From: Phycisphaerales bacterium
Lineage (GTDB): Bacteria > Planctomycetota > Phycisphaerae > UBA1845
Direction of reading: 5' to 3'
Assembly (NCBI GenBank): GCA_020348265.1
Contig: CP070744.1
Location: forward strand, 3,197,866 to 3,261,865
DNA: 64,000 nt
This document shows, piece by piece, positions 55,091 through 56,305 of the stretch. The notes beneath the pieces are model-generated. The model was not told where the DNA came from. It did no database searches and saw nothing but the letters and a program-made list of their open reading frames with translations. The position numbers were made by a program, and so were the translations under genes. Within the stretch, counting starts at the first letter, position 1. The number at the start of each line of letters is the position of its first letter.

Positions 55091-56305
55091 TCAGGATGTC
55101 GAGTCGTCGTTGTTTGGGAAGATATCATCGACTAGGCCGCCCAGACCCTCATCCGCATCGTCTCTGAGCTGATCGCCTATGCCGTCGATGTCGGCTCCTA
55201 CATCGTCCAGCAGTTCGTCCAGATCGGGGCCTATCCCATCGACTAGATCATCGAGATCCGGGAGCAGATCATCGATTATTTCAGCAACTTGGTCTTCGAC
55301 GTTGCCCAAACCCAAGTCAATGCGTTCGCCGATTTGAACTAACAGTTCCGCCACGTTGTCCTGAAACTCGGAGACAATCTCGTCAACGCGCTGTTGGACG
55401 TTGGCGCGTAGCGCATCCACCTCCTCCTCCAAGGTGGCTCGCAAATCCGCAACAACAGCGCTTACGCCTGTTTCCAGCTCTGCGAGCCGTTCGTCCAGAT
55501 TGTCTCCGGCGGCGGAGAGGCGATCCTCCAGATCGCTGATCAGTGCGACAACGTCGTCTTTGAGCTCATCCACCAGGGTCGCCGCCGCAGTTCGTACTCT
55601 GTCCGTGAACCCGTCGACGTTGAGCTCCACCCCGTCGACGGCTTCTCTTACCTGAGCCTCTAGGTCATTGACAAAGCTGTTAAGCTGGTCCTGCACCTCC
55701 GCGATGATCTCTCCGTCGGGATCGAGACCTTCAGCAAGGTCATCCCTGACGGATTCAACAACGGTATCCAGGTCGAATTCGATGTCGTCGACGAATTCGC
55801 CGAGACCACCTTCGATACCGTTGACGAACTCATCCACGCGGCTCTTGGTGTTGTCACCCAACTCCGTGAGACGTTCCTGCGCATCGCTGATGATCGCGCC
55901 GACGTTTGTTTCTACCTCACTGATCCACCGAGCGAGCTCATCCGGCTGAACCACGCCGTCGATCGCAAGGACGTTAGTGACCTCCGCGATGGTGGCGCCA
56001 CTCCGACATGGTTCGCCGAGATCGGAACGAGGCTCAAGTACGAGACGTGACTGCACCCCTACGGTTGCGACCGCGTCGAAGTCCTCGTTGCCCAGTCGAA
56101 TATCCTGATAAAGAACAAAAACACGACCGTCGTTCGACGCCCAGACAATGCAGGAATCGTTCTCGCCCGTGCTTTCAGTTTCCCCCTTCACAACAAAGGG
56201 TGCGCCGCTGGCAATCAACCCCTCCTCTGGCAGGTTTATGTCTATGCACCCAGCAGTGATACATAGGCTTGCCAATGTACCTACTATAAGCATGTTCACT
56301 CGCAT
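55091..56305 (-). CDS. Lipoprotein with long acidic 11-residue amphipathic repeats (apolipoprotein-like)
   Basis: Lipobox TAGC; small beta domain; about 17 or more contiguous hendecads. Confidence 0.75.
   Translation of the reverse strand: MRVNMLIVGTLASLCITAGCIDINLPEEGLIASGAPFVVKGETESTGENDSCIVWASNDGRVFVLYQDIRLGNEDFDAVATVGVQSRLVLEPRSDLGEPCRSGATIAEVTNVLAIDGVVQPDELARWISEVETNVGAIISDAQERLTELGDNTKSRVDEFVNGIEGGLGEFVDDIEFDLDTVVESVRDDLAEGLDPDGEIIAEVQDQLNSFVNDLEAQVREAVDGVELNVDGFTDRVRTAAATLVDELKDDVVALISDLEDRLSAAGDNLDERLAELETGVSAVVADLRATLEEEVDALRANVQQRVDEIVSEFQDNVAELLVQIGERIDLGLGNVEDQVAEIIDDLLPDLDDLVDGIGPDLDELLDDVGADIDGIGDQLRDDADEGLGGLVDDIFPNNDDSTS

Follow-up and report, generated by a model that had tools for sequence, protein, structure and literature searches.

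What does a bacterial lipoprotein do with a tail of about 275 residues that keeps one 11-residue (hendecad) register from end to end, and why does its gene lie beside an MCE transport operon? The question is raised by P0001, a 404-amino-acid acidic protein encoded on the minus strand of a 64,000-nucleotide stretch (hereafter the window; contig CP070744.1 of assembly GCA_020348265.1, positions 3,197,866 to 3,261,865) of the genome of a Phycisphaerales bacterium, which consists of one 5.67-Mb contig. An initial annotation had flagged 55115-55930 (-), residues ~126-397 of P0001, as the repeats of an apolipoprotein-like protein. Our analysis supports well the description of P0001 as an exported, lipid-anchored envelope protein, with an OB-like disulfide-bonded barrel as a head next to the anchor and four hendecad helices joined by three short conserved loops. 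As to its function, we tentatively favor an apolipoprotein-like bundle that opens conditionally and handles lipid for the MCE system or for adjacent lipases.

A lipid-anchored protein with a continuous hendecad tail

The gene for P0001 is divided as follows.

55091..56305 (-), whole gene of P0001, the 404-amino-acid acidic hendecad lipoprotein
56246..56305 (-), signal peptide and lipobox, MRVNMLIVGTLASLCITAG/C with Cys20, read from the sequence
55955..56245 (-), N-terminal beta domain of ~100 amino acids, residues 21-117, with C52 and C100
55733..55945 (-), hendecad helix 1, residues 121-191, placed by repeat register and AlphaFold
55517..55711 (-), hendecad helix 2, residues 199-263, after a conserved DPDG-type loop, placed by register, AlphaFold and alignment
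55322..55498 (-), hendecad helix 3, residues 270-328, placed by register, AlphaFold and alignment
55121..55300 (-), hendecad helix 4, residues 336-395, with 23 D/E and 1 K/R the most acidic of the four

A GGAG lies 8 nucleotides 5' of the ATG. The signal peptide ends in the lipobox ITAG/C (Cys20) of a bacterial lipoprotein, with an atypical Thr at -3, and the lipobox Cys is conserved in at least 90% of 54 relatives. C52 and C100 of the N-terminal domain are invariant among relatives. The lipobox and the two-Cys beta domain that the initial annotation had placed before the repeats are thus both confirmed.

When the sequence from residue 205 is written in rows of 11, the 17 in-register 11-mers noted at first are readily seen, their positions 4, 7/8 and 11 being occupied by hydrophobic residues. 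Upstream of them, where about five more had been noted, we counted 7-8 further rows with no indel, so that ~25 hendecads run in unbroken register from residue ~122 to ~396 (~275 residues). Of 26 rows, 20, 14, 19 and 24 have a hydrophobic residue at positions 4, 7, 8 and 11, respectively, an a-d-e-h pattern, and D/E dominate every non-core position. Fourier analysis of VILMFW over residues 121-404 gave a power of 61.6 at a period of 3.667, against 2.75 at 3.60 and 1.1 at 3.5; among 200 shuffled sequences, the top power at any period was 5.9 +/- 1.1 and never exceeded 9.4. The hydrophobic phase is constant to about 50 degrees over the whole tail. The z-scores of BLOSUM autocorrelation at lags 11, 22 and 33 were 9.9, 8.3 and 8.1. 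As lag 22 does not rise above lag 11, the tail has no 22-residue superperiod, and the only 5 Pro in residues 118-404 show no 22-residue spacing.

A survey of 7,725 open reading frames (ORFs) of the genome for 11/3 power left P0001 as the sole outlier, with 38.9 in its best 154-residue window against 13.2 for the runner-up. No DNA tandem repeat was found under the hendecad pattern, which rules out a recent tandem duplication of DNA as the source of the repeat; the 11/3 periodicity is therefore maintained at the protein level. The extreme acidity reported for this region also holds, with 82 D/E and 16 K/R in residues 121-404. The net charge is about -66, and P0001 ranks as the 10th most negative protein per residue among 3,765 non-overlapping ORFs of the genome. 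The other top-ranked acidic proteins of the genome are likewise exported.

AlphaFold gave P0001 a predicted local distance difference test score (pLDDT) of 58 without an alignment and of 86.5 with a 54-sequence alignment, the latter with a predicted template modeling score of 0.64. In the model, three strands, a helix and two strands make up an OB-like N-terminal domain, which is followed by helices of 59-71 residues at 121-191, 199-263, 270-328 and 336-395. No family was matched by the N-terminal domain in searches of Pfam, NCBIfam and the PDB sequences, and Foldseek yielded weak matches only (E of at least 0.01) to a NigD-like protein (4pqx), DUF1344 and OB proteins. When the full model was compared with the PDB by Foldseek, nothing matched at E <= 0.001, and the helices could be aligned only with a very high root-mean-square deviation. 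As the simplest packing we infer an up-down four-helix bundle of 9-10 nm, with loops of 6-7 residues, a narrow a-d-e-h core and a D/E surface.

By sequence, P0001 is placed in an unannotated family of the Phycisphaeraceae, one member of which, from a Phycisphaerae bacterium, is on deposit as a hypothetical protein. Exhaustive searching of 1.84 billion representative proteins with HMMER recovered about a dozen full-length relatives (373-407 amino acids, 28-34% identity, ~12 clusters), some 60 short lipoproteins of ~110-190 amino acids that correspond to the N-terminal domain alone, and giant helical proteins matched weakly by the tail. In other searches, a word-indexed homology search with the N-terminal domain alone matched one protein, a profile scan built from a 4-sequence alignment gave 3 loci, a metagenome scan gave one 1.7-kb contig, and a single-protein scan of genome contigs yielded no related locus. 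P0001 has no paralogue in its own genome. Of the 401 species genomes of the class, only G000, G031 and G177, all of one family, contain full-length members, and ~16 contain the N-terminal domain alone.

The full-length relatives share the features of the tail. Their period is 3.64-3.69 with a power of 19-46 and a heptad power of at most 1.6, and their tails measure 262-287 amino acids. Indels in the alignment are restricted to three loop sites that coincide with the helix boundaries of the AlphaFold model; the loop preceding helix 4 is Pro-rich in relatives. Net charge ranges from -27 to -66 over the family, with P0001 at the extreme; the others, at -27 to -49 and with 23-40 K/R, keep the same architecture. 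The hendecad proteins of G000 and G177 are only 33% identical, whereas their neighbors reach 51% (MCE), 64% (PqiC-like) and 82% (DUF3313). Since period, length and charge pattern are kept at such low identity, selection acts on the pattern far more than on the sequence. A natural case of ~275 residues in unbroken hendecad register with a nearly pure acidic surface, in which period, length and charge pattern persist while the sequence drifts to 30% identity, lends itself to work on coiled coils and on conditional folding.

Two variants of the architecture were also seen. In P0029 the tail again follows a lipobox, the N-terminus is a different one without the beta domain, and the protein passes the Pfam Phasin cut-off. 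P0016 has a half-length, 113-amino-acid version of the tail after the beta domain. Together they suggest modular growth by helical hairpins.

Apolipoprotein likeness and the structural alternative

The initial reading of P0001 as an apolipoprotein-like lipid or scaffold protein stood in part: the 11/3 period, a class A-like charge map, a bundle-like AlphaFold model and lipid-related neighbors agree with it, and a non-specific Pfam match, a narrow hydrophobic arc and the missing 22-mers do not. Some database matches favor it, as apolipoprotein-type models lead the list. The best PDB sequence match of P0001 is apoA-IV (1.3e-8), PF07464 (ApoLp-III) scores 39.3 bits against a cut-off of 36.3, and Baculo_PEP_C scores 40.7 bits against 38. 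The PF07464 match lies under a stronger match to PF01442 (Apolipoprotein), and the relatives, at 24-31 bits, fall below the PF07464 cut-off.

Over 11 family members with 202 K/R in total, K/R make up 16-31% of the residues at 30-90 degrees from the hydrophobic center and 2-3% of those beyond 120 degrees, and D/E make up 43-59% of the residues at 90-180 degrees. In P0001 and in the family this arrangement resembles a class A amphipathic helix, although charges flanking the core of a bundle would look similar. By charge and hydropathy, the composition of the tail falls just past the boundary towards disorder, and its i/i+3 and i/i+4 pairs comprise 50 of like charge and 20 of opposite charge, which together suggest a marginal fold that depends on counter-ions. 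Despite differing loop lengths, the hydrophobic phase is carried over the loops in 22 of 33 crossings (~9 expected). A single continuous, open amphipathic helix is therefore another state that the tail could adopt; descent of the loops from degenerate hendecads would account for the phase equally well.

We infer from these properties that the tail might behave in the manner of the exchangeable apolipoproteins, for example ApoLp-III or the N-terminal domain of apoE. A marginally stable closed bundle would open into one long in-phase amphipathic helix, which would then cover lipid or another hydrophobic surface. Counter-ions (Mg2+, Ca2+, sea-salt) would be needed to screen the charge of the tail.

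Several observations weigh against such a lipid-binding tail. The PF01442 score of P0001, 87.0 bits, is below the 90-bit gathering cut-off, and its relatives reach only 59-76. Phage tape-measure proteins (PhageMin_Tail; P0039, P0032 and P0043), which are matched by the tail, reach 126 bits on the same model. Because they outscore P0001, the model evidently detects generic 11-periodic helices and is uninformative on lipid, and for the same reason the sequence similarity of P0001 to apolipoproteins is probably convergent. "Apolipoprotein domain" labels on bacterial and phage proteins can thus reflect an 11-residue periodicity only, a pitfall for annotation. The hydrophobic arc spans only ~100-130 degrees, and no more than 3-4 of the 11 positions are strongly hydrophobic. 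The two flanks of this face differ in composition, one being enriched in V/I and the other in L/F/M (chi-square p = 0.003, or p = 0.009 when P0001 is left out), a handedness that points to a specific packed core and not to a lipid-facing surface. The net charge of ~ -66 should repel anionic membranes, and the tail has no Pro-punctuated 22-mer organization. Models for LEA (LEA_4), perilipin and synuclein proteins gave no match to P0001 at E <= 0.1. The predicted bundle itself calls for caution, as AlphaFold often folds intermolecular coiled coils as intramolecular bundles.

A purely structural tail accommodates much of this and is quite possible, nearly as likely as lipid handling. P0001 would then form a stable straight bundle or a homo-oligomeric hendecad rod, held on a membrane by the lipid anchor. 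With no lipid binding, it would serve as a spacer or fender, or as a scaffold on which envelope proteins dock, for instance the PqiC cap, the MCE needle or an OprB porin. The narrow a-d-e-h core with its position-specific preferences for V/I or L, the conserved lengths of helices and tail, and the confident bundle model all fit this reading, and the nearest look-alikes outside the family, the phage tape-measure proteins, are structural hendecad helices. Fast evolution (33% against 51-82% for the neighbors) that keeps only period and length is what a structural ruler would be expected to show. Yet the extreme density of like charges without salt bridges and the borderline-disordered composition argue against a rigid stand-alone rod; class A-like K/R positions and phase continuity over loops are not required of a static bundle; and the recurrent lipase, MCE and Lpx neighbors described below favor lipid.

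The 11-residue period and the borderline-disordered composition would also suit a stress protectant of the LEA type, whose 11-mer amphipathic helices would fold under desiccation or osmotic stress to protect membranes. We regard this as highly improbable for P0001. The group-3 LEA, perilipin and synuclein 11-mer families named in the initial annotation gave no match at the above threshold, LEA_4 included. P0001 is moreover exported and lipid-anchored, its AlphaFold model shows a folded state with conserved loops, and its neighbors are not stress genes.

Compared with the exchangeable apolipoproteins (apoA-I, A-IV and E, PF01442; apolipophorin III, PF07464), P0001 is likewise secreted, with tandem 11-residue helices in 11/3 phase, K/R at the interface and D/E in the middle of the polar face, and its predicted lipid-free form would likewise be an elongated up-down helix bundle. 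It differs in lacking the 22-mer and Pro punctuation, in scoring below the PF01442 cut-off, in its few K/R (16) and net charge of ~ -66, in its narrower, V/I-rich face, and in having a covalent lipid anchor and an OB-like head. Two bacterial proteins with PF01442-like, apolipoprotein-like helical repeats have been described: the growth pole ring protein GPR of Agrobacterium, with two N-terminal transmembrane helices (PMC8262873), and LPD06283, a structural lipid-droplet protein of Rhodococcus opacus (PMC3902926). A bacterial apolipoprotein-like protein is therefore not new in itself. Unlike P0001, however, both are cytoplasmic or attached to the inner membrane, are no lipoproteins, lack an OB-like domain and a link to MCE operons, and have not been described as extremely acidic. 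What is new in P0001 with respect to this known kind is the extracytoplasmic lipid anchoring, the OB-like head, the extreme acidity and the link to an MCE operon. With hendecad coiled coils and straight bundles, including phage tape-measure proteins, P0001 shares the strict 11/3 period, the narrow core and the position-specific core residues; it differs from them in its four ~65-residue helices with conserved turns in one chain, its lipid anchor, its acidic surface and its context of envelope and lipid genes.

Genomic neighborhood and a possible link to lipid transport

P0001 is encoded upstream of SGNH and MCE genes on the same strand, as had been noted. On the minus strand, the genes follow in the order K+ channel, DUF3313 lipoprotein, 145-amino-acid lipoprotein, 753-amino-acid secreted protein, P0001, SGNH hydrolase, STAS-MlaE, MlaF, MCE and PqiC-like protein.

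59432..60097 (-), DUF3313 lipoprotein, part of a block that co-occurs with the hendecad gene in G177 and on the P0005 contig
58914..59351 (-), 145-amino-acid lipoprotein of the same conserved block
54184..54954 (-), SGNH/GDSL hydrolase, downstream of P0001
52975..54159 (-), MlaE-family permease with an N-terminal STAS-like extension
52182..53015 (-), ATP-binding cassette (ABC) ATPase, MlaF-like
51058..52131 (-), single-MCE-domain protein with a long C-terminal helix, resembling the C-terminal part of PqiB
50450..51061 (-), PqiC-like ABC_trans_aux lipoprotein

A scan of the locus for promoters and terminators was uninformative. The SGNH hydrolase is itself a lipoprotein and nearly matches P0001 in acidity, with 55 D/E and 13 K/R over the 269-amino-acid ORF that begins at 54993. 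The MCE and PqiC-like proteins are near neutral, unlike these two acidic lipoproteins, and P0001 and the SGNH hydrolase may occupy one compartment and the transporter components another. In the MCE protein, the C-terminal helix has a period of ~3.54 and is heptad-like, not hendecad. Kinship between it and the tail of P0001, which BLASTP joined only at E = 0.009, was ruled out.

Eight contexts of full-length hendecad genes were compared. The MCE block adjoins the gene in three of them (the window, G177 and the P0005 contig), each time at a different position; these three and one tail-less homologue lie within ~4 kb of a MlaE/MlaF/MCE operon. G177 has the same block, with the hendecad gene five genes further upstream, directly after an OprB-type porin, and has neither the SGNH nor the 753-amino-acid gene. 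On the P0005 contig (30% identity), the order is DUF3313, a 143-amino-acid protein, MlaE, ABC ATPase, MlaD, ABC_trans_aux, LpxD and then the hendecad gene. The tail-less homologue, in G032, lies directly upstream of STAS-MlaE. In a Phycisphaeraceae metagenome-assembled genome (L021), the member P0004 is followed by a patatin-like phospholipase (9101-10663 (+)) and, further on, by an MFP-RND pair homologous to the one at 45712-50445 that flanks the block in the window. In the P0013 context, the hendecad gene is preceded by genes for DUF3300-like, DUF2950 and OprB proteins and runs convergently to LpxI. G031, P0011 and P0008 have no neighbors in common with the other contexts.

The recurrence of lipase, MCE and Lpx neighbors (SGNH, patatin, LpxD, LpxI) points towards lipid, and the recurrent but positionally flexible tie to MCE genes suggests a functional one. 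We therefore place the lipid-handling tail tentatively in envelope lipid traffic, where it would hold or present lipid for the ABC-driven MCE/PqiC-like transporter. Alternative clients would be the adjacent lipoprotein lipases, the SGNH hydrolase in the window and the patatin in the relative. Two aspects of the neighborhood count against this role: the MCE linkage is missing in five of the eight full-length contexts, and the linked genomes all belong to one bacterial family, so that the linkage may be inherited synteny. A general MlaE linkage of the stand-alone N-terminal domain genes was ruled out, as none lies near MlaE in 60 relatives. One such gene (G017) is followed by a GDSL-like protein, with a score just below the threshold.

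Lipid movement and buffering between the two membranes of diderm bacteria are only partly understood. The known lipid carriers are soluble pockets or tunnels. If the proposal is true, an anchored apolipoprotein-type bundle genetically tied to MCE would be a different, testable principle. A bolder version would make P0001 the extracytoplasmic bacterial counterpart of the exchangeable apolipoproteins, in which the anchored bundle opens, wraps phospholipid or another lipid, either in the periplasm or on the outside of the cell, and feeds both the MCE transporter and the lipases. It would then form a protein-stabilized lipid particle or a lipid-presenting surface, and envelope lipid traffic would gain a carrier principle next to soluble shuttles (MlaC) and bridges (PqiB, LetB, AsmA-like proteins). 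We consider this version doubtful.

P0001 can also be compared with the MCE accessory lipoproteins PqiC and MlaA and the carrier MlaC. It resembles them as a lipoprotein encoded with a MlaE/MlaF/MCE/PqiC-type operon in several genomes. It differs in having no sequence or fold similarity to them, the operon contains a separate PqiC-like gene, and the linkage is not universal. A literature search for hendecad lipoproteins or MCE-linked amphipathic lipoproteins returned nothing relevant.

Directly upstream of P0001, at 56407-58668 (-), is the gene for the secreted 753-amino-acid protein, which has no Pfam match. Its last 200 residues contain 57 K/R and 16 D/E, and it ends in GGGRRRR. Close to family members in G032 and L028, secreted proteins of the DUF3300 type (L014 3389-4849; L028 3243-4751) likewise have a G-rich tail followed by RRR. 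Homology between the 753-amino-acid protein and the G032 DUF3300 protein was not detected. The shared G-rich/RRR ending may be a signal at the C-terminus, or it may pair by charge with the acidic lipoprotein.

These basic tails bring up a third reading of P0001, as a polyanionic binder whose D/E surface sequesters Mg2+/Ca2+ or binds basic partners such as cationic peptides or the upstream 753-amino-acid protein. The excess of 82 D/E over 16 K/R, the D/E-dominated non-core positions and the export of the other very acidic proteins of the genome would suit it, as would the basic C-terminal tail of the upstream neighbor and the similar G-rich, RRR-ended secreted proteins in G032 and L028. We nevertheless find it improbable. 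Other members are far less acidic (net -27 to -49) yet have the same architecture, no basic-tailed neighbor is present in G177, G031, L021 or L026, and the tail-less homologue of G032 is also near a basic-tailed protein. Mere charge, moreover, needs no strict hendecad order.

Two further features of the neighborhoods were recorded. In G177 and on the P0013 contig, whose contexts otherwise differ, the gene just before the hendecad gene codes for an OprB-type porin (L030 8460-9824; L028 6123-7598). The window also contains a second MlaE gene, a 279-amino-acid ORF without the STAS extension at ~26765-27379 (+), and in most relatives MlaE likewise comes as a pair of paralogues, a short one and one extended at its N-terminus.

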